NCBI GenBank assembly: GCA_039589315.1
Contig: JBDHHQ010000110.1
Span: 1-13,097, forward strand
DNA length: 13,097 bases
Direction: 5' to 3'
Source: Gemmatimonadota bacterium
Lineage (GTDB): Bacteria > Gemmatimonadota > Gemmatimonadetes > Longimicrobiales > Gaopeijiaceae
Shown one piece after another: positions 3,181 through 13,097 of the stretch. The translations under genes were made by a program, and so were the position numbers. Below the pieces are notes generated by a model that made no database searches, was not told where the DNA came from, and was given only the letters and a program-made list of their open reading frames with translations. Position 1 is the stretch's first letter; each line of letters starts with the position of its first letter.

Positions 3181-3882
3181 ATGAGTAAAACCAATGGCAT
3201 ACAGGTCCATCTCGAGCTTGGACGACGAGGAGCCGTCGCTGCTCGAAGGCGCGGGGGGGTGGTCATCCTGATCGACGCGTTGCGGGCAAGCGCCACGATC
3301 GTGACGGCGTTGGGGACGGGGATGGCAGCGGTAAGGCCCGTTCGTGAGCTCGAAGAGCGTGTGGGCGAGGTAACGGCCGGTGAGCGGGGGGGACGCAAGC
3401 TGCCGAGCGCAAAGCACGGGAATAGCCCCACAGAGCTTCTGGAGCAGGACTACGCCGGGAAGACTCTGGTTCTCGCGACGACGAACGGGGTCGAGTGCCT
3501 TCTGACGGCGGCGGGGCCAGCCACGAGAGTGATGATCGGAACCACTCTCAACTGTAGTGCTGTCGTTGCCGCGGCCACTGAGGAAGCGCGAGAGCTGGAT
3601 GTACCGATCACGCTGCTCATGGCCGGACGAGACGACCGCCCTGCCGCTGAGGACGCTCTGACAGCGAGTCTGCTCGTCCGGTCGATGGGGCCGGAGGCAC
3701 ATCTACACGGCTCTTTGCCCCCGTCGTCCTTGAACATGGCGGCGCCGTTTCTGGCGAGCGCGGCCGGACAGAATCTGGTCGAGCTCGGATACACTGACGA
3801 CGTGGAGTGGTGTGCCAGGGTAGACGTGTATGACGTCGTTCCCGTCCTGAAGCACGATCATTTGGTGCCCCGTCCCAGCTGA
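3181..3882 (+). CDS. comB: 2-phosphosulfolactate phosphatase
   Basis: ComB family motifs VILIDALRASATI, AGERGG, GNSP, LATTNG, AGR...AED and GQNLVELGY.DDVEWC. Start ATG 3181 preferred over GTG 3127. Confidence 0.92.
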   Translation: MSKTNGIQVHLELGRRGAVAARRRGGVVILIDALRASATIVTALGTGMAAVRPVRELEERVGEVTAGERGGRKLPSAKHGNSPTELLEQDYAGKTLVLATTNGVECLLTAAGPATRVMIGTTLNCSAVVAAATEEARELDVPITLLMAGRDDRPAAEDALTASLLVRSMGPEAHLHGSLPPSSLNMAAPFLASAAGQNLVELGYTDDVEWCARVDVYDVVPVLKHDHLVPRPS

Positions 3883-3980
3883 GTCATGTCGATACGCATG
3901 CGCCTCGGTGCCACTGGCTTCATCCCCGGGATGCGGCGCCCGTTCCGGCGAGCTGGCTGTTCCGGCCCGCCAGAGGTGAG

Positions 3981-5090
3981 ATGGAGGCTCGAGTGCCGAC
4001 TGTCCTCGTAACGGGCGTCGGAGGTGGCGGGGCGAACAACCTCATTCGAGCTCTTCGTCCATATGATCCGTATCCGACAATCATCGGGGTCAACAGTGAC
4101 GCGCTGGCCCTGGCTAGATCACGAGCCGATGGGGATTACCTCATTCCACACTCGGGAGACGAGGACGCTTATGTGGACGCTCTCAACTGTGTCAGCGAGC
4201 TGAACGCAGTGGATCTCGTGATACCGACCAACGATACGGAGGTACGCGTCGTATCCGAGAGACGGTCCGACCTGCGCAGCCAGGTACTGCTTCCGTCTAC
4301 CGAAGCCGTGCGTGTCTGTACCGACAAATGGGAGTTCTACGTCCGGTGTCGTGAGGGTGGCGTGAGCATGGCTCGCAGCGCGTTGGTCCAGGACTTGGCT
4401 GAGATCCCCCGGCTGTTCGCGGAGCTCAAGGGAGAGGAGCCGGGAGTTCTGTGGTGCAGAATGAGGCGGGGTAACGGGGCTCAGGGGGCCCTGCCTGTAA
4501 GTGAACCGGAGCAGGCGCGGTCGTGGATCCAGTATTGGATCTCCATGCGCGGGGCAAAGGTGGACGACTTCTCGCTGAGCGAGTACCTGCCGGGTCGCGA
4601 CTTCGCGTTCCAGAGCCTTTGGCGTGACGGCGATCTGGTCATCGCGAAGACGTGCGAACGGCTCAGCTACCTGTTCAGCCGCCAAACGCCATCGGGGAGT
4701 GTGTCCACCCCGAACCGAGGTCGCCTGGTGAACATCGCGGACGTGAACGAAGTAGCGCTTCGGGCGATTCGTCACGTGGACGCGTCGCCTACAGGAGTCT
4801 TCTCCGTCGACCTCAAAGAGGCCGCCGATGGACGGATCTGCGTCACCGAGATCAACGCCGGTCGCTTCTTTCGAATCAGCCCAAGCATGAATCTCGTTGG
4901 GCGGCATAACATGGCGACGATGTTCTTGGCTCAGGCGCTCGAAGGACGGAGGTTTGACCTGCCCGAGAACGAGATCTTCGGAGACATCGGTGAGGAGCCG
5001 ATGCTCTACCTCTGCGATGTTGACGAAGAGCCCTCGCTGGTCCCTGAATCAAGCATCAGAGGCCACATAAAGGAATACGGGAGTAGTTAG
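3981..5090 (+). CDS. ATP-grasp domain ligase (carbamoyl-phosphate-synthase-like, PylC-like N-terminus)
   Basis: N-terminal VLVTGVGGGG, then DLVIPTND.E, CTDKW, GNGAQG loop, SEYLPGRDF, FSVDLK and TEINAGRF. GAGG SD upstream. Confidence 0.88.
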   Translation: MEARVPTVLVTGVGGGGANNLIRALRPYDPYPTIIGVNSDALALARSRADGDYLIPHSGDEDAYVDALNCVSELNAVDLVIPTNDTEVRVVSERRSDLRSQVLLPSTEAVRVCTDKWEFYVRCREGGVSMARSALVQDLAEIPRLFAELKGEEPGVLWCRMRRGNGAQGALPVSEPEQARSWIQYWISMRGAKVDDFSLSEYLPGRDFAFQSLWRDGDLVIAKTCERLSYLFSRQTPSGSVSTPNRGRLVNIADVNEVALRAIRHVDASPTGVFSVDLKEAADGRICVTEINAGRFFRISPSMNLVGRHNMATMFLAQALEGRRFDLPENEIFGDIGEEPMLYLCDVDEEPSLVPESSIRGHIKEYGSS

Positions 5091-5092
5091 AG

Positions 5093-5869
5093 ATGGGCGC
5101 TTCATTCCTGGACGTTCCCGAGCGCACGTCCAAACCCCGCCGGTCAGGCGTCACCTCACTGCTCGACGGTGGAGTCAGCCTGGGGACCTTCAGAGATGTA
5201 GTCGAATCTTTTCACGCGTTCATAGACTACATAAAGCTCGGGTGGTGTACCGCCGCGCTGACGCCCCACCTGAATGAGAAAGTCGCAATAGCGCGATCGC
5301 ATGACATCGAATGTTACTTCGGCGGTACATTATTCGAGAAGGCACTCTTGCAGAACAAGCTCTCGGAGTTCCGACACTTCTGTCGTAGCGTAGGGTGCGA
5401 TCATGTCGAGATCTCGAACGGTACGATTGATCTGAATAATCGACAAAAGGGTGATCACATACGCGTATTCGCAGAGGACTTCCATGTATTCAGCGAGGTG
5501 GGATACAAAGATCCTGAGCGTTCGATCAAGCTTCACCCGGCGGCGTGGATCGCGTTCGCACGCGAGGATCTGACAGCCGGTGCTGAATATGTCACAATGG
5601 AGGCACGAGAAAGTGGCCGAAGCGGGATCTGTCGACCAAATGGAGAACTGAGATATGGTTTGATACAGGAGATCATACTCTCCGATCTCGATAACGAGCG
5701 CCTTATATTCGAGGCACCCAACAAGACGCTGCAGGCCTACTTCATCAAGGAACTCGGCGCCAACGTGAATCTGGCCAATATCGACTTCGCACAAGTGCTT
5801 GCGCTGGAGACGCTGAGGACAGGTCTGAGATCTGACACGCTCACGCTTTTCGAGGAGGCGCAGTCGTGA
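5093..5869 (+). CDS. comA: Phosphosulfolactate synthase
   Basis: KPRRSGVTSLLDGG, IDYIKLGWCT, GGTLFE, VEISNGTI, SEVGYKD, MEARESG, LIFEAP, NVNLANI and LETLRTGLRSDT are all ComA family signatures. Confidence 0.96.
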   Translation: MGASFLDVPERTSKPRRSGVTSLLDGGVSLGTFRDVVESFHAFIDYIKLGWCTAALTPHLNEKVAIARSHDIECYFGGTLFEKALLQNKLSEFRHFCRSVGCDHVEISNGTIDLNNRQKGDHIRVFAEDFHVFSEVGYKDPERSIKLHPAAWIAFAREDLTAGAEYVTMEARESGRSGICRPNGELRYGLIQEIILSDLDNERLIFEAPNKTLQAYFIKELGANVNLANIDFAQVLALETLRTGLRSDTLTLFEEAQS

Positions 5870-6261
5870 CGGGCAGTATCTTCCATCTGGCCATACCGTG
5901 TGCCGATCTCGACGCCGCCCAGGAATTCTATGTCGACGGACTTGGATGCCGTCTCGGTCGACGGATGGCGGACCGCATCACGTTGGACTTCTTCGGCGAC
6001 CAGGTAGTCTGCCATCTTTCTCCGGATCGGATCGATCCTGAACCGACGATGTATCCACGGCACTTTGGCCGTACCTTCGACAGCAAGTCGGACTTCGATG
6101 CGTTGGTGCGGCGGGCCGAGGACAAGGGGCTGCCGTTCTTTCAACGGCTCTCCACGCGGTTCGGTGGTCGTAGGGACGAGCACCTGATGTTCTTCCTCAA
6201 GGATCCCTCCAACAACCTTCTGGAGTTCAAGTACTACTTCGACGCCGAGATGAGGTATTGA
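5866..6261 (+). CDS. VOC (glyoxalase/bleomycin resistance/extradiol dioxygenase) family protein, COG3565-like
   Basis: FHLAIPCADLDAAQEFY.DGLGC, FFGDQVVCHL, PRHFG and FLKDPSNNLLEFK. GTGA overlap with the comA stop. Confidence 0.9.
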   Translation: MTGSIFHLAIPCADLDAAQEFYVDGLGCRLGRRMADRITLDFFGDQVVCHLSPDRIDPEPTMYPRHFGRTFDSKSDFDALVRRAEDKGLPFFQRLSTRFGGRRDEHLMFFLKDPSNNLLEFKYYFDAEMRY

Positions 6262-7100
6262 TGAACCATCCTTCCCTGCTGGAACGTCGTGAGGCGTCGG
6301 CCAGGGGGTCCGAGGTGGAGCAGCTCGTCGTAGTCATTCCCTGCTTCAACGAGGAGGGGACGCTTCGTGAAACGGTCGGGAGCGTCAGGGACGTGGCGCC
6401 TCATCTGGACCTGAGGACGACGATCTTGCTGATGGACGATGGCTCTACGGATGGCACGCGGGAGGTCATGGCCGAGATGTGCGACGAGCACGAGAGCTGC
6501 CGAATGCACGTGAGCGATCGCAATCAAGGTCTCGGACGCACCGTGATGAAGGCGTACGAGCTGATCGAATCGGGTCGATGGGTAACGGTGATTCCGGGCG
6601 ACAACGAGTTCATCTTTTCGTCGATCAAGAACCATCTGGCGGTGAGGGCCGAGCACGACATCGTGCTCGGCTTTCTGCAGAACGCGGTCGTGCGGACGGT
6701 CCGCCGCCGGGTTGGCTCCACCGTGTTCCAGAGGACGGTCGGGTTCCTGTACGGTTTCCCCTACCGATACCTGAATGGCCTCAAGCTCTATCGGAGCGAT
6801 GCCTTCAAGGGCCTGGACATCGTCTCGTCGGGTCACGCGTTCAACGCCGAGCTGTTGGCGAAGGCGCTACTCCGAGACCCAACGCTCCGCATCGGAGAGG
6901 CGCCATTCCTGGCTCGTGGTAGGTCGGAGGGTCACTCGAAGGCCTTCCAGCCCCGGTCCGTGGCTCGCGCGGTGTGGGACGTGTACCGGGGCTTTCGGAG
7001 CGTCACGGGATACCGGAAGCGACTGCTGGCGGCTCAGGCTCGTCAACTTCGGGATTCCTCGGCCCCGACCGCGTCCGGCTCGCTGCGGGGAGACCCGTGA
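6261..7100 (+). CDS. Glycosyltransferase family 2 (DPM1/polyprenol-phosphate glycosyltransferase-like)
   Basis: VVIPCFNEE, MDDGSTDGT, NQGLG, YLNGLKLY and R..G.SK. TGATG coupling to the VOC stop. The DxD position reads PGDNE. Confidence 0.9.
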   Translation: MNHPSLLERREASARGSEVEQLVVVIPCFNEEGTLRETVGSVRDVAPHLDLRTTILLMDDGSTDGTREVMAEMCDEHESCRMHVSDRNQGLGRTVMKAYELIESGRWVTVIPGDNEFIFSSIKNHLAVRAEHDIVLGFLQNAVVRTVRRRVGSTVFQRTVGFLYGFPYRYLNGLKLYRSDAFKGLDIVSSGHAFNAELLAKALLRDPTLRIGEAPFLARGRSEGHSKAFQPRSVARAVWDVYRGFRSVTGYRKRLLAAQARQLRDSSAPTASGSLRGDP

Positions 7101-8053
7101 AGCCACGGCGCCAGCGTCACGACGCCGAGTAGGGTATAGGGCCCGATTGCCATCGCGTGGGCGATCACGGCGAAGGACGCTGCCACACTCTGCTCGACGC
7201 CGAGCAGGGTGAGCGCAAGTGCGGCGAAGTAGTGGTAGGTCCCCACGTACGCGGGCGATGACGGGACGGAAACGCCCACGCCGACCAGGGCGAGCACCAG
7301 GGCCGGGCCCCACCAAGGCAGGGCCAGCCCGAACGCCATCGACACCAGGGTGAGCGAGGCGAAGCCCATCGTCCAGTAGCAGAAGGTGGCCAGCGCCGCG
7401 CCGATAGCCTTTCTGGGAGACGAGAGCACTTCGAAGCCCCTCCGGATGGACTCGGCTCGCGCGGCCACGTTGGCGGCGGCCGCAGGACTGATCCGGCCCA
7501 GCCAGCCCTCGAGAAGTCCTGGAAGGAATCTCGATTTCCCGACCACCAGGACGGTGATCAGTGCCGCTGCCGTTGCGCCGACGAGCAGTCCGACACCCGA
7601 GTCGAAGCCTCGGTCCCTCAGCATCGACTGCGCAACGAGGGCGAAAAGGGCCAGGAGCAGCATGGCGTCGAGCAGCCTCTCGACCGCGGCGGTCGCCAGC
7701 AGGAAAGCTCGGCTCGTCCGTGTGCGGCTGCCCAGGTAGTCGACCCGGATCAGCTCACCCACTCGAAAGGGCAGGATGTTGTTCGCGGTGAAGCCCAGCA
7801 GATGCGAAGCGAAGAGCTCATTGAAGGGGAGGGGACCGGGTTGCGCGGTCGTGATACGCGACCGCCACGCCATCGCCGCGAAGCCGGCCCCTTTGGTTAC
7901 GAGAACGAGGCTGAGGAGAGGGAGAGACACACCGGTGAGCGCCTTCCACATCTCCGCCCAGTCGATCCCGCGCAGCGTGAGGTAGACGAAGAGGGCGGAG
8001 ATCGCCAGGCCCAGCGAGATCAGCGCTTTTCTCGATCGCAGAACGCCGAGCAC
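7043..8053 (-). CDS. Lysylphosphatidylglycerol synthase TM / UPF0104 flippase-like membrane protein
   Basis: Multi-pass hydrophobic protein with AWR, GFTANNILPFRVGELIR, VERLLD and VPSSPAYVGTYH motifs. Confidence 0.9.
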   Translation of the reverse strand: MLGVLRSRKALISLGLAISALFVYLTLRGIDWAEMWKALTGVSLPLLSLVLVTKGAGFAAMAWRSRITTAQPGPLPFNELFASHLLGFTANNILPFRVGELIRVDYLGSRTRTSRAFLLATAAVERLLDAMLLLALFALVAQSMLRDRGFDSGVGLLVGATAAALITVLVVGKSRFLPGLLEGWLGRISPAAAANVAARAESIRRGFEVLSSPRKAIGAALATFCYWTMGFASLTLVSMAFGLALPWWGPALVLALVGVGVSVPSSPAYVGTYHYFAALALTLLGVEQSVAASFAVIAHAMAIGPYTLLGVVTLAPWLHGSPRSEPDAVGAEESRS

Positions 8054-8055
8054 GG

Positions 8056-9915
8056 TCAGCGTTCCGACGCCGGTGGCAACTCACCGGTTGGAGAGTGAGC
8101 GTCCGTGTAAAGCTCTCTTCGATCCAAGTAGTACCGCATCTGGCCGTTCGGTATCTCGGCCGCGGAGGGATGGTCCAGTGGGATCAGCTGCATCCTACAG
8201 TCTTCGGTCCAATGAGCTACATAGCCAGCTCGTGCGGGGAAGAACTCCATGAGCTCCCGATCCCGCGCCGAGCTGAGGTGGTTGGCCCAGATCAAGTCAT
8301 TCCTCAGGTCCGGATCGTTCATGGGCCACCAGAACACGAAATGGCTCGGCACCTCGCCTCCGTCGGGTGTGCACGAGGGCGCGAAGGGGGGGGAGGCGAA
8401 CACGACGGCATTGGTGAGCCCCGCATCCTCCACTGCGCCGAGGGGGGCCTTGACCGAACGGGCGATCTGAGCGACGGCCCTGAAGCGGTGGGGAACGTAG
8501 AGGAGCGAAGCACCGAGGATCAGGGACCCGAGCAAGGTCAAGGGAAACAAACGGTGCTCTGGCGCCCGCCATCGGAACCAACGGTGTAGGCGCTCCAGGC
8601 CGACGCCCGACAGCAAGATGACTGGAATCGCCAGCTCCGTGAGGTGGACGGGTCCGAAGGTGTCGATCCCGGTGTCCTTGAGCGGGACGTGCACGAGCCA
8701 GAAGAGCGCGAGCGCCGCCCAGAGCACGCGGGCCTTCTTCGCGCGGATAGCGAAGAGGAGAAACAGGAACGAGAGTGGCCAGCCGAATAGCGCGAAGTTG
8801 AGACGAAACACACCGAGCGCGAAGATCACCGGCGTATCGGGCTTGAACGCCAGGTTGGCCACCTCCGTTGCCCGGTCGACGTTGAGACCGCTGAAGCGGT
8901 AGTCGTTCTGGGCCGCGTACGACTGAAACGCCTGGTAGGCCGGCTTGAGCGCGTGGCCGGTTTGAGCCCAGTTGATCCAAAGGAAGAGGGCTGCTAGCGC
9001 CGTGACCGGGAGCGCAAAGGCCATCAGCCTGGGCAAGACGGGGTTGCTTTGTCGCAGGAGTCCCCAGAACCAAAGGACCAAGAAAGGGGTCCCGATCCCG
9101 ATCACCGACAGGGGCCTTATGAAGAAGGCGACGCTGAGCATCAACCCGAACCCAGCGTGGACCGCGACGTTGGTCGGTGAGCGGGCGGCCCTCACGGCGA
9201 AGAATGCAGCCCACGTCAGGGCGGCGACCGTTGCCGTATGCGAAAGCCGCGTTGCCGCCATCATCTGGAGCATGGGCGACGCCAGCATCAGGACCACCGC
9301 GATCTGTGCCCAGCGCCGGCTCATGAACTCCTTCGCGAGGCCGTACAGACCGGGGATCGTCAGGCCGGCGATCAGGGCGTTTTCGTATCCGTGCACGCCA
9401 AGCCGCACACCCGGGGCCATGAGGGCCGGCCATCCGAGGAAGTACTGGGAGTAGACCCGTCCGTCGTTTATGAGGAAGATGTGGTCGAAGAACAGCTTCA
9501 ACGGGTGGGACCGGGCATACAGACGGCCCGACGCCAGGAGCTCCGCTGAGAACCTGTACAGCGTCTCGTCATCGGCGAGCGGCATGCCCTGCAGTAGGAA
9601 CGCGCGGAGCGCTGCGGGAATGAGGATCGCGAGTCCCACCGCGACAACGAGGAAGGCCCGTTCGTCGAACCCTCGCCAAACGAACCGGCCGTGACACGCC
9701 GCGTCCAGTCCGGAGGCAAGGAGGATCGCCCCGGCGCCACCCAGGATGGAGTAGTACGTGAGGAAGCGCAGGTATCCCGGCTGAGGGGTCGTGATGCTGC
9801 CGAGGTCGAGGGGAAAATGGTCGTTGAGCAGACCGAGGGCTGGTAGGGCGGCCCACAGGAGAAGTCCAGCGAGGATGAGTTGGATTCCGATGCGCGGACG
9901 CTTGGTTGGGCTCAC
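8056..9915 (-). CDS. GT-C fold membrane glycosyltransferase (ArnT/PMT_2, GT39/GT83-like)
   Basis: Many TM helices, acidic DDETLY motif in the first large external loop, then SQYFLGWPALMAPG, ASPM, FFIRP and NWAQTGH, plus a soluble C-terminal domain. GTGA overlap with the upstream gene. Confidence 0.8.
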   Translation of the reverse strand: MSPTKRPRIGIQLILAGLLLWAALPALGLLNDHFPLDLGSITTPQPGYLRFLTYYSILGGAGAILLASGLDAACHGRFVWRGFDERAFLVVAVGLAILIPAALRAFLLQGMPLADDETLYRFSAELLASGRLYARSHPLKLFFDHIFLINDGRVYSQYFLGWPALMAPGVRLGVHGYENALIAGLTIPGLYGLAKEFMSRRWAQIAVVLMLASPMLQMMAATRLSHTATVAALTWAAFFAVRAARSPTNVAVHAGFGLMLSVAFFIRPLSVIGIGTPFLVLWFWGLLRQSNPVLPRLMAFALPVTALAALFLWINWAQTGHALKPAYQAFQSYAAQNDYRFSGLNVDRATEVANLAFKPDTPVIFALGVFRLNFALFGWPLSFLFLLFAIRAKKARVLWAALALFWLVHVPLKDTGIDTFGPVHLTELAIPVILLSGVGLERLHRWFRWRAPEHRLFPLTLLGSLILGASLLYVPHRFRAVAQIARSVKAPLGAVEDAGLTNAVVFASPPFAPSCTPDGGEVPSHFVFWWPMNDPDLRNDLIWANHLSSARDRELMEFFPARAGYVAHWTEDCRMQLIPLDHPSAAEIPNGQMRYYLDRRELYTDAHSPTGELPPASER

Positions 9916-11456
9916 CCCCGCAGCTCCGGGCGCCGTCTCATGAACTCCAGGAGGCGGGGCAGGTCGACCAGGCGGTTTCCCATACGGCTCACACCCACCG
10001 AGGCGATACAGGCGCCGATGTAGGCACTGACAGGGGGGGGCGCACCGGCCTGGTCAGCAAGCACCACGCCGCTGAGAAAGAGATCCCCGGCGCCTACCGA
10101 ATCGACCGCGATATCCACCAGGGCCGGCAGGTAGGAGGCGCGGAGGCGTCTCGCCTCCTCGTCGAACGGTGAGAAGCTGACGCACCCACGCTGGGCCAAG
10201 GTCACGATCACGCTGCCGGCTCCCGAACGGCGAAGGTAGGAGTGGGCCACCGTAGACAAACCGCTCTCCATGTCTCCCAGAGCGAAGCGGAGCTCTCTCT
10301 CCGTGGGCGTGGCCAGCTTGGGCCCGCCGAACTTCAGGAGATTCGCCTGGCCGCTGGTGCTGACGTCGGCGAACAGGGATCTCGTGGTACCGCCGCTCGA
10401 TGGGCTGAGAGCCCGGCAGAGCCGATCCCCGAAGAACCCGTAACCGAAGTCCGTAGCCACGACGGCGTTGAAGTCGCCCGGCAGCGTTTCGAGGTACCGG
10501 ATCAACCCGTCGACGGCGACGTCCGTCAGCGGCGTATGGAATCCTTCGTTGACCTTCAGGAGCTTCTGCTGCCCGGCCACGTACCTGCGCTTGACGAAGA
10601 GGGGCCGTGCCCCCGACGGCACAGAGACCAGTTCCACTCCGGCCCGCTCGAGCGCCCGCTCGAAGCGCTCGAACATGGGGCCCTGCCCAGCCGAGGTCAG
10701 AAGCGTGGCCTGGGCTCCGAGCGCCGCCAACTGGGACGCGATGAGCGCGCCACCACCGACGTAGAACTCTTCGTCCACCGGTGATACGGAGAGGATGGGG
10801 CTTTCGGGTGCGACCGACGTTCCCTCGCAGAAGACGTAGTGGTCGAGGATCGGGTCGCCGATGACGAGGATCCTCAGGCCCGCTAGAGCGCTGAGCAGCT
10901 CATCGACGCGGGCGCGCTGAATCCCGTGACGACGACAGTAGGCTTCGACACGCTCGTCCCGAAGGCCGAAGGCCTCGGGTCGGTTCTCGATGATCTCCGT
11001 GGAGGAGAAGACGAGGTCGCCCGAGCCGAAGACGATCTCTCCACCGTAGTCGTGTACGATGTTTCTTTCCTCGGCGAAGCGAGGATCTTCGTTCGTCTCG
11101 TATTCACGACCCTTCACGTAAACGTCGGGACGGAGCGCTCCGAGGGCCGGTCCACCCCATGTGGCATCGGCGAGGCAGACGTAGTCCACGAACTCGAGGG
11201 AGGCGAGGTTCTCCAGGCGGAGCTCCTCGGGGATGTAGGGTCGATCGAAGCCCTTACCGACACCGTCGTCCGCGCTCACCGAAACGATGAGGACATCGCC
11301 CAGTGTTCTGGCAAATCGTAAGTATCGAATGTGCCCAGGGTGCACGACGTCGAAACACCCGTGACACTGGACCACCCGCTTGCCCTCCCGTCGCAGGTGT
11401 TCACGGATGACCACGAGGTCATCGATCGGGAGGATCTTGCTGTCCGGATCGCTCAC
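9912..11456 (-). CDS. Bifunctional cytidylyl/adenylyltransferase plus PfkB sugar kinase (HldE/RfaE-like, reversed domain order)
   Basis: N-terminal HGCFDVVHPGH (HxGH), KGFDRP, VYVKG.EY and SSTEII. C-terminal VIGDPILDHY, VGGG, DFGYG and DSVGAGD. Start placed at GTG 11456, which has GGAG 7 nt upstream and avoids overlap with the HAD gene. Confidence 0.9.
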   Translation of the reverse strand: MSDPDSKILPIDDLVVIREHLRREGKRVVQCHGCFDVVHPGHIRYLRFARTLGDVLIVSVSADDGVGKGFDRPYIPEELRLENLASLEFVDYVCLADATWGGPALGALRPDVYVKGREYETNEDPRFAEERNIVHDYGGEIVFGSGDLVFSSTEIIENRPEAFGLRDERVEAYCRRHGIQRARVDELLSALAGLRILVIGDPILDHYVFCEGTSVAPESPILSVSPVDEEFYVGGGALIASQLAALGAQATLLTSAGQGPMFERFERALERAGVELVSVPSGARPLFVKRRYVAGQQKLLKVNEGFHTPLTDVAVDGLIRYLETLPGDFNAVVATDFGYGFFGDRLCRALSPSSGGTTRSLFADVSTSGQANLLKFGGPKLATPTERELRFALGDMESGLSTVAHSYLRRSGAGSVIVTLAQRGCVSFSPFDEEARRLRASYLPALVDIAVDSVGAGDLFLSGVVLADQAGAPPPVSAYIGACIASVGVSRMGNRLVDLPRLLEFMRRRPELRG

Positions 11457-11478
11457 TTCAGGACTCCGTCGGTTCGCT

Positions 11479-12135
11479 TCAACCGGGGGTAGCTCGGACC
11501 CATGGTTGCACGGGCAAGTCGGCAAGGCCGCTGATTCGGTAATCGGCAGGTTCTGCGTCTCCGACGACCACTACGAACGCCCCGGCCTCGGACGCCGCCT
11601 CCGCGCCCGCGGTGGTGTCCTCTACCGCGACGCAACGATTGATCGCAACACCGAGGCGCCGCGCCGCGACAATGAATCCCTCGGGCGAAGGCTTGGGGGC
11701 CGTAACCGCCGAGCCGTCGACGATCGTCTCGAAGGCCCATGTGAGTCCGAGGCTCTCGATCACGATGACGGCGTCGCGACTGTTCGAGACGATGGCTGCG
11801 GGGACCCCGGCGTCCTTCAGAGCGATCAGAAGGCGTTCGCTGCCCTGGGCCCTCGTCACGCGCTGCGACGAGAGAAGGCGACGGAACGCCTCAGCCTTGG
11901 CGTGGGCCACGCGTTCACGGAGCGACGGAGACAGATCGAGAAGGGCCAGCACCTCATGACGAGCAGCGCCCCTTCGGGCTTCCCGTCGGGCGCTTTCGGG
12001 GAAGTGTACGTCGTGCGCTTCGCATGCCAGCTCGTAGGCCTCTACGTGCGCTTCGCTCGAGTCAGCGATCACGCCGTCCAGGTCGAAGAGGAACGCGGCG
12101 GGCAGGAACGGTAGCATGCTCACAGGGTCTGACAT
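11479..12135 (-). CDS. HAD-superfamily phosphatase, beta-phosphoglucomutase-like
   Basis: Motif I FDLDGVIADS, motif II VSNS, motif III KPSPEGF, motif IV VEDTTAG. Start could be 12135 or 12117. Confidence 0.9.
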   Translation of the reverse strand: MSDPVSMLPFLPAAFLFDLDGVIADSSEAHVEAYELACEAHDVHFPESARREARRGAARHEVLALLDLSPSLRERVAHAKAEAFRRLLSSQRVTRAQGSERLLIALKDAGVPAAIVSNSRDAVIVIESLGLTWAFETIVDGSAVTAPKPSPEGFIVAARRLGVAINRCVAVEDTTAGAEAASEAGAFVVVVGDAEPADYRISGLADLPVQPWVRATPG

Positions 12136-12236
12136 GGCCTGGAAGTTGCAGCTGGCACGGGCGAAAGCGAGCGAAACCCATAGCTCGAAAGCAAGAGCCG
12201 CAAAACAAGGACGTCAAGCCTTCGAGGAGGTCTCGC

Positions 12237-13097
12237 GTGCCAAAGGGGCAGCTTCACGTGCTCGTTACGGGCGGCGCCGGATACATCGGCTCGATCCTGG
12301 TTCCCGAGCTCCTGGCCGAGGGGCACCGGGTAACCGTCCTGGATCTGCTGCTTTTCGGCACCGCGCCACTCGCCTCCGTGGCGAACGAGCCGGGGCTCAC
12401 GATCGTGAAGGGGGACCTCCGTGATCCGGACGTTCGAGCCCGGGCCCTGTCCCTCCGTCCCGACGTCGTGATCCACCTGGCGGCCATCTCCAACGACCCC
12501 AGCGCGGAGCTCGATCCCGATGTAACGAAAAGTGTCAATGGGGATGCAACGGAAGCGATCATGCGCGAAGCGAAGCTGCATGGGGTCGGCCGTTTTCTGT
12601 ATGCGTCGTCTGCGAGCATCTACGGGATCAAGGACACCGCGGAAGTCACGGAGGACCTGCCTCCGGACCCGCTTACGCTGTACGCCAGGTACAAGCTGCA
12701 GGGCGAGGAGAAGCTGACCGATCTGGTGGCCGACGATTTCGTCGGCGTCTCCGTGCGCTCGGCCACCGTCTGCGGGGACTCACCGAGGCTCCGACTGGAC
12801 CTCACGATCAACCTCCTTTCCGACCATGCCTTGAGGCTCGGACGCATCCGCGTATTCGGCGGATCCCAGATGCGGCCCAACGTCCACGTTCGCGATCTCA
12901 CCGCGTTCTATCGGCTGCTCCTTCACGCGGACTCGGAATCGGTCAATGGTCAGGCCTTCAACGTGTCCCTGCGAAACGCCACGGTCATGGATCTCGCAGA
13001 GATGGTGGCGGATCAGCTCGGCGGAGGAATACCGGTCGACGTGGAGCCGACAGACGACGTGCGCTCGTACCACCTGTCCGGGCGCCGGGCGAAGGAT
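12237..13097 (+). CDS. NAD-dependent epimerase/dehydratase (extended SDR), truncated by the window end
   Basis: Not in the ORF track because no stop codon falls inside the window. GAGGAGG SD at 12224-12230, GTG at 12237. Manual translation: MPKGQLHVLVTGGAGYIGS...VIHLAAISNDP...YASSASIYG...YARYK...RPNVHVRD, containing GxxGxxG and YxxxK. Confidence 0.93.
   Translation, partial: MPKGQLHVLVTGGAGYIGSILVPELLAEGHRVTVLDLLLFGTAPLASVANEPGLTIVKGDLRDPDVRARALSLRPDVVIHLAAISNDPSAELDPDVTKSVNGDATEAIMREAKLHGVGRFLYASSASIYGIKDTAEVTEDLPPDPLTLYARYKLQGEEKLTDLVADDFVGVSVRSATVCGDSPRLRLDLTINLLSDHALRLGRIRVFGGSQMRPNVHVRDLTAFYRLLLHADSESVNGQAFNVSLRNATVMDLAEMVADQLGGGIPVDVEPTDDVRSYHLSGRRAKD

Follow-up and report, generated by a model that had tools for sequence, protein, structure and literature searches.

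A Gemmatimonadota locus that may attach a sulfo-acyl group to a lipid-carried amino sugar

Why should genes for the first steps of sulfolactate formation lie beside glycosylation genes? ComA adds sulfite to phosphoenolpyruvate (PEP) to give (2R)-phosphosulfolactate, which ComB dephosphorylates, and we found genes of both families in such a setting in a Gemmatimonadota bacterium (genome G000; 6.67 Mb, 288 contigs, 95% complete). The stretch under study, here called the window, is the entire 13,097-nucleotide contig JBDHHQ010000110.1 (C110) of this genome. We consider it fairly probable that the locus produces an amino sugar with an N-(sulfo-acyl) group and carries it on polyprenyl phosphate to an acceptor outside the membrane. 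The gene arrangement is no chance grouping, because a second genus has an orthologous core together with ComA, ComB and an ATP-grasp enzyme. The genes of the locus are as follows.

3181..3882, plus strand: comB; ComB, 2-phosphosulfolactate phosphatase family (PF04029, E 4e-44)
3981..5090, plus strand: ATP-grasp gene; PylC-like carboxylate-amine ligase and candidate sulfo-acyl ligase (PylC-like_N, E 5e-6, just under the cut-off)
5093..5869, plus strand: comA; phosphosulfolactate synthase of the VOC-linked/YitD clade (PF02679, E 1e-83)
5866..6261, plus strand: VOC gene; small candidate metalloprotein of the PDB 3RRI family (PF00903, E 1e-13)
6261..7100, plus strand: GT2 gene; soluble, ArnC/DPM-synthase-like, candidate polyprenyl-phosphate loader (PF00535, E 9e-17)
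7043..8053, minus strand: flippase-like membrane protein (LPG_synthase_TM, PF03706, E 6e-41; TIGR00374 below cut-off)
8056..9915, minus strand: GT-C-like polytopic membrane protein (PMT_2, E 0.004, weak; NF047440, E 2e-7, below cut-off)
9912..11456, minus strand: nucleotidyltransferase-PfkB kinase fusion, HldE-like with the domain order reversed
11479..12135, minus strand: HAD sugar-phosphate phosphatase, with orthologues in genomes G004, G152 and G1388
12237..13097, plus strand: nucleoside diphosphate (NDP)-sugar epimerase/dehydrogenase, divergent, truncated by the contig end

The gene core and its recurrence in related genera

The first-pass annotation, made from the sequence alone, had described comB to GT2 as a co-oriented and largely tightly coupled run, and the Pfam and NCBIfam matches and the coordinates bear this out. 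The ATP-grasp gene and comA are separated by 2 nt, comA and VOC overlap by GTGA and VOC and GT2 by TGATG; comB stands upstream of the ATP-grasp gene at a spacing of 98 nt. This plus-strand run converges with the minus-strand genes for the flippase-like protein, the GT-C-like protein, the kinase fusion and the HAD phosphatase. All the adjoining glycan genes named in that annotation, including the epimerase, are present (with weak scores for the GT-C), and its statement that the window holds no comC, comDE or xcb genes also stands.

An orthologue of the window GT2 occurs in four of 113 same-family genomes (G000, G004, G152 and G1388) and in 3/401 of a phylum sample. In G1388, which belongs to a different genus, a core of DegT, epimerase, HAD, HldE-like, GT-C, shorter flippase-like and methyltransferase genes faces GT2, a 493-residue ComA-ComB fusion and an ATP-grasp gene, the fusion overlapping both of its neighbours; its ComA falls outside the window ComA clade. 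Genome G152 carries a sulfotransferase of the 3'-phosphoadenosine-5'-phosphosulfate (PAPS) type directly upstream of GT2 (PF13469, E 4e-19), which may represent an alternative anionic sulfur decoration, and no ComA was found in this genome. In G004 the locus is a relic flanked by insertion sequences, with HAD, HldE-like and flippase-like genes facing a GT2 gene that has an internal stop; its ATP-grasp gene, short by about 50 residues at the start, adjoins a Mutator-type transposase, and again no ComA was found. Sulfur-decorating genes therefore stand beside GT2 in three of the four genomes; in two of these three they are sulfonate genes, and the two ComAs belong to different lineages.

The two sulfonate modules are related in part. 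The window ComB (E 7e-22 to PDB 2yyv) shares 63% identity with the ComB portion of the G1388 fusion, to which a ComB paralogue on contig C8 of G000 is 34% identical, and the window ComA and ATP-grasp are 41% and 30% identical to their G1388 counterparts. The window module is thus a mosaic, with ComB orthologous to that of G1388 and ComA (with VOC) and the ATP-grasp enzyme derived from other lineages. The simplest reading would be that the arrival of VOC went with a joint replacement of ComA and the ligase, which a change of acyl donor would lead one to expect. The G+C content at third codon positions (GC3) is 0.63-0.74 for comB through VOC vs 0.75-0.83 for the glycan core, comA (0.63) being the contig minimum, and is low too in the three genes left of the cluster (0.73-0.77). 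Raw GC3 values are used here, percentiles being biased by the gene caller.

ComA, its VOC partner and the acyl donor

The window ComA keeps all the sites equivalent to Glu103, Glu133 and Lys137 of Methanocaldococcus jannaschii ComA, which we take to be catalytic, and scores below the cut-off of the archaeal equivalog TIGR03849 (234 vs 280). Its gene is single-copy in G000 and rare among kin (2/41 near relatives and 11/401 phylum genomes, both counts including G000). No ComA relatives were found among viral contigs, and in Verrucomicrobiota genome samples the centre genome alone matched (1/401 and 1/121). Quick trees, as all our trees are, without bootstrap, placed the window ComA with all VOC-linked ComAs and Bacillus YitD (SH-aLRT 96-98), apart from XcbB and from the G1388 fusion; the identities are 51% to YitD and 38-41% to XcbB sequences. 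Two further ComA settings were seen. In NZ_CP071528.1 (L163:4853-8481), a 970-residue protein fuses a fatty acyl-AMP ligase-like region, an acyl carrier domain and ComA, with an aminotransferase gene before it and comB next, a further coupling of ComA to acyl activation. A same-family genome (G380, L039:8135-10761) has a ComA 57% identical to that of the window, without VOC and near an opposite-strand Wzx-type flippase.

The VOC gene is a constant neighbour of comA. In 21/21 other loci comA lies directly upstream of VOC, loci that are not independent lineages: 24 GTDB comA loci comprise 10 with VOC directly downstream, 11 from Bacillus and 3 Salinibacter-like, while the search from the VOC side matched 10/401 Actinomycetes genomes and gave nine new loci plus two from a genus search, all with comA directly upstream. 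Judging from this gene order, VOC is a dedicated partner of ComA. A more distant VOC (47% identical) on a cyanobacterial plasmid has no comA adjoining. A Verrucomicrobiales metagenome-assembled genome (MAG) encodes homologues of ATP-grasp (47%) and VOC (67%) with consecutive accessions, and adjacency of the two genes is therefore implied; no comA was seen with them. The protein matches PDB 3RRI (E 3e-49), an uncharacterised structural-genomics protein, and H7, H50, H66, H106, E120, four Arg and K122 are invariant across 47 aligned VOC sequences, which is consistent with a metal site and an anionic substrate. The closest characterised folds are FosA and FosB, which does not fix the chemistry.

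Among the 19 comA-VOC loci with wide flanks, 11 carry an AMP-forming ligase together with an AT3 acyltransferase, and one (L024) reads Wzm-Wzt-FkbM-ATP-grasp-comA-VOC-DegT-GT2. ComB was seen in 0/19 and a histidine phosphatase in 3/19. L024 and G1388, in which the window core stands with a ComA-ComB fusion and an ATP-grasp gene, show that the linkage is not confined to the window genome. A cyanobacterial MAG has a gene for a TauE sulfite exporter just upstream of comA-VOC (L008:8307-11163). We also considered VOC as a substitute for ComB; this is disfavoured, since the window and three of the 19 loci carry a separate phosphatase and ComB is encoded elsewhere in 3/5 comA-VOC genomes.

A possible model for the VOC step is found in the misaugamycin cluster, in which misNOPQ are the predicted source of a 2-sulfoacetyl group; the group itself was shown by nuclear magnetic resonance in misaugamycin-B and is favoured by sulfite feeding, while the link from genes to group is a prediction in the portion of the report consulted (PMC9136965). 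As in the comA-VOC loci, a gene for phosphosulfolactate synthase precedes one of the glyoxalase family, with an acid-activating ligase next to them, and the product is a sulfo-acyl amide, the match being one of gene order alone. Unlike the window, Mis has an acyl-CoA ligase and an acyl carrier protein and acylates a peptide, and no ComB appears in the part of the gene account available to us (PMC9136965); comA in the window adjoins neither of these proteins, an ATP-grasp gene standing there instead. No mis-bearing Streptomyces was found among the best 120 matches of the actinobacterial VOC homologue search or by genus search. Because the comA-VOC(-ligase) order resembles misNOPQ, the window acyl group may be sulfoacetyl, which we hold about as likely as sulfolactyl. 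The earlier remark that no characterised pathway resembles the locus is therefore to be qualified by misaugamycin-B, a peptide and a partial precedent; a sulfo-acyl glycan pathway was not found in the open-access literature, which leaves most subscription papers outside its reach.

A lipid-carrier route for a sulfo-acyl amino sugar

An amide on a sugar calls for an amino group, and the first-pass annotation had predicted a sugar aminotransferase gene downstream. The truncated epimerase of the window almost certainly continues on contig C155 into such a gene, a join that we infer because the head of C155 and its DegT match the epimerase ends and the following DegT of G152 and G1388. Contig C155 starts with 37 codons to a stop that overlaps the start of the DegT gene (G000:C155:111-1211). 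These codons are 67% and 64% identical to the epimerase C-termini of G152 and G1388, in frame across a 12-codon gap; the window part of the epimerase is 66% identical to both orthologues, and the C155 DegT (PF01041, E 3e-93; a sugar aminotransferase) is 63% and 61% identical to the proteins that follow them. No exact 15-25 base overlap of C110 with another contig was found.

Given this join, a single locus holds an NDP-sugar dehydrogenase/epimerase, DegT, an ArnC-like GT2, a flippase-like protein and a weakly scoring GT-C. No hydrophobic segment was found in GT2, whose sole PDB sequence matches are to ArnC (E 7e-7), with a score of 34 vs a cut-off of 529 for the ArnC equivalog NF007986; the C155 DegT scores 171 vs 631 for the ArnB equivalog NF008658. 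The flippase-like protein is 47% identical in G004 and 51% in G1388 over a partial match, the GT-C-like protein falls in Atlas PMT_2 clusters at 0.99 and has a 46% orthologue in G1388, and the HldE-like fusion has orthologues of 58-63% identity in G004, G152 and G1388 (63% in the last). A GmhA-like gene (180 bits vs a cut-off of 209) lies elsewhere in G000, G152, G004 and G001, pointing to a possible heptose precursor supply. A second amino-sugar module in G000 has DegT followed by an iron-containing alcohol dehydrogenase-like gene (C50:20462-22894).

The closest analogy in architecture is the Arn route to 4-amino-4-deoxy-L-arabinose (L-Ara4N), which proceeds by NDP-sugar oxidation, DegT transamination, N-acylation, GT2 loading, flipping and GT-C transfer. 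The same architecture of steps is predicted at the window locus, which differs from Arn in its low sequence similarity, another flippase family, a supply module that is HldE-like and a sulfo-acyl group predicted to be permanent, vs a transient formyl group. Our best model is that the locus resembles Arn in its working, with a donor supply of the misNOPQ kind added, while being a member of neither. By their family membership, ComA would join sulfite to PEP and ComB would strip the phosphate, giving sulfolactate; the steps beyond this point, the identity of the acyl group and the acceptor are what we infer from families and analogies. The VOC protein would probably modify the acid, perhaps by trimming it to 2-sulfoacetate in the way predicted for misNOPQ, and in G1388, which lacks VOC, sulfolactate or its phosphate would be used. 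The kinase, HAD and nucleotidyltransferase activities would supply an NDP-sugar, possibly a heptose, that the epimerase/dehydrogenase and DegT would turn into an NDP-amino sugar. The ATP-grasp enzyme, whose predicted structure (pLDDT 94.7) matches ATP-grasp folds, would then form a sulfo-acyl phosphate and amidate the sugar amine; alternatively ComB may act after ligation. By analogy with Arn, GT2 would load the sugar onto polyprenyl phosphate, the LPG_synthase_TM protein would aid its crossing and the GT-C would transfer it to protein or lipid.

The final transfer bears on whether the end product is instead a diffusible sulfonated amino-sugar metabolite or glycolipid, rather than a surface polymer or protein decoration. 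The sole structurally proven product linked to a ComA plus glyoxalase cassette is a secondary metabolite. We nevertheless regard such a product as quite improbable: a set of GT2, flippase-like and GT-C proteins is typical of lipid-carrier transfer, and in G152 pilin genes and genes for TPR/PMT-like glycosyltransferases are found about 13 kb away from the core. This G152 neighbourhood (L159:13407-19898) includes a GT2 gene along with pilin-like genes and genes for two TPR membrane proteins, one of which matches PMT_2 weakly, hinting at protein glycosylation.

The nature of the bond can also be read differently. In Campylobacter jejuni the Cj1438 ATP-grasp domain joins glucuronate in amide linkage to serinol phosphate or ethanolamine phosphate, after which Cj1435 removes the phosphate, the precedent for ComB acting after ligation; the likeness to the window lies in an ATP-grasp enzyme that is paired with a phosphatase and amidates a surface glycan. 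Unlike in the window, the carboxylate comes from the sugar, the ATP-grasp enzyme has a TupA-like fold and, in the part of the study available to us, no sulfonate is involved (PMC11800379). Since Cj1438 joins serinol phosphate to a sugar carboxylate, the window ATP-grasp enzyme might couple a sugar carboxylate to a sulfonated amine (cysteate or taurine from sulfopyruvate), or GT2 might glycosylate sulfolactate directly; unlinked ComC- and ComDE-like genes in G000 could lead towards sulfopyruvate or sulfoacetaldehyde. Such a bond appears rather unlikely to us, in that neither the window nor any orthologous locus examined has a UDP-sugar dehydrogenase, the aminotransferase linked to the locus belongs to the DegT sugar aminotransferases, GT2 is ArnC-like, and none of the 6/40 relatives with ComD-like genes has ComA.

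A bolder form of the sulfo-acyl amino sugar model remains tentative, and we think it possible but doubtful as a whole. It holds that surface glycoconjugates receive a hydrolysis-resistant C-sulfonate without a sulfotransferase, interchangeable with O-sulfation in one genomic slot; that VOC is a new metalloenzyme converting (phospho)sulfolactate to 2-sulfoacetate; and that the product is an N-sulfoacetyl amino sugar, possibly an amino-heptose, in the window and its N-sulfolactyl counterpart in G1388. What this locus contributes is its lipid-carrier core and the swap series, and the series of ComAB plus ligase, ComB plus ligase plus ComA-VOC, and sulfotransferase makes the sulfo-acyl amino sugar model testable with soluble enzymes. 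If that model is true, many orphan bacterial ComA genes would gain a role beyond coenzyme M or spore sulfolactate, and a sulfonate acyl group, as a permanently charged decoration, would join the known glycan substituents. A C-S sulfonate is resistant to sulfatases, which could matter for recognition by phages or predators and for organosulfur cycling. The series could also reveal what 3RRI does and put the sulfoacetyl step predicted for misaugamycin to the test.

Opposing evidence, coenzyme M and minor features

Several observations weigh against a sulfo-acyl glycan as the product. The glycan core exists without sulfonate genes (in G152 and in the G004 relic), the GT-C assignment rests on weak scores, and the closest characterised folds of VOC are FosA and FosB rather than oxygenases. 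No VOC homologue was found in G1388 (89% complete), G004 or G152, so VOC is dispensable for the glycan core. No ligase lies nearby in 7/19 comA-VOC loci (six scanned with Pfam, L004 judged by open reading frame layout alone). Among 80 metagenome loci of ATP-grasp homologues, comA, comB or VOC occurred in none, and DegT was nearby in six; at least 1 kb on both flanks was available in 42/80, none was closest to the window subclade and 71/80 best matched a distant one. This count shows that the wider ATP-grasp family is not sulfonate-specific, and no more. No PAPS/adenosine 5'-phosphosulfate (APS) reductase (PF01507) was found in G000, which is 95% complete, and the sulfite source is therefore unexplained; PF01507 is present in 3/5 comA-VOC genomes, and VOC itself may be a sulfite supplier. 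Lastly, ComC- and ComDE-like genes lie unlinked on other contigs of G000, below equivalog cut-offs. The sulfonated-glycan proposal thus gained the aminotransferase and a recurring linkage, but its acyl donor may be 2-sulfoacetate and its core can do without sulfonate genes. The recurrent linkage expected of ComA holds for comA-VOC and the G1388 core but is not seen in the wider ATP-grasp family.

Part of this evidence would suit a free sulfonate, a solute or counter-ion comparable to the spore sulfolactate of Bacillus subtilis, with ComA, ComB and VOC as passengers in a variable glycan locus and ATP-grasp adding an unrelated acyl group. The grouping of the window ComA with YitD, the ligase-less comA-VOC of Alicyclobacillus and a cyanobacterium, the ATP-grasp homologues in sugar loci without comA and the low GC3 of the cassette all fit. 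We judge this unlikely, however, because ComA and ComB, with different ComA lineages, abut the same GT2 and an ATP-grasp gene in two genera with overlapping stop and start codons, and a sulfotransferase occupies the slot in a third genus.

The window genes are also set apart from the known sulfolactate systems. They share with methanogen ComA/ComB and B. subtilis YitD/YitC the same two families with acidic and lysine sites kept, but lack linked ComC/ComDE or sat/cysC/cysH and have VOC, ATP-grasp and a glycosylation core instead. The Bacillus yit-type layout, with comB-comA linked to sat, cysC and cysH, does not occur in G000, whose sat-cysC lies on C19, unlinked to the window genes. In B. subtilis, yitCD have been linked to spore sulfolactate by inference, as far as the consulted text goes (PMC517825).

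Coenzyme M could be made by the archaeal ComABCDE or the bacterial Xcb route, both described in the consulted part of PMC9457059. ComA and ComB are present, ComA homologues act as the first step of Xcb too, and G000 encodes an Ldh_2 (ComC-like) protein on C111 (232 bits vs the NF040650 cut-off of 500) and two ComDE-like pairs that depend on thiamine pyrophosphate (C29:44442-45562 and C40:31136-32349; the better pair 127 and 125 bits vs 148 and 221.5). Tblastn gave no match to epoxyalkane:coenzyme M transferase or XcbA in G000, in which 2-KPCC, XcbC, XcbD and XcbE have scattered generic homologues, each on a separate contig, and no clustered xcbC/D/E or alkene genes were found. Of the genome-wide absence expected earlier, that of an xcb cluster or coenzyme M-using enzyme stands, and that of comC/comDE is softened by the sub-cut-off genes. 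As the window ComA lies outside the XcbB sequences and none of the relatives with ComD-like genes has ComA, coenzyme M synthesis by the window genes is unlikely, and we regard it as very improbable.

Other ATP-grasp settings were noted. Homologues in two amino-sugar loci (L044:4184-7926 and L122:5292-8968) accompany an FMN_red-domain protein and an MR/MLE enolase, possibly a different acyl-donor module; these enolases are 23-26% identical to the one adjoining Bacillus yitD, and that link was dropped. In L095, L107, L115 and L121, members of a distant subclade are followed by an open reading frame of 65-77 residues without a Pfam match, in unrelated contexts.

Promoter and terminator scans of the window gave signals at shuffle level; the interval 1623-1674 holds two consensus promoter-like sites, their overall frequency likewise at shuffle level. 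Positions 13-2563 hold Methyltransf_24 and TetR genes and a divergent gene for a TTHB210-like protein (with a 48% paralogue on C71). A short frame upstream of comB (2740-2920), without Pfam or tblastn support, may be a methyltransferase remnant, as it presumably resembles the C-terminal motif of glycan-locus methyltransferases; in G1388 an intact methyltransferase gene adjoins the ATP-grasp gene.

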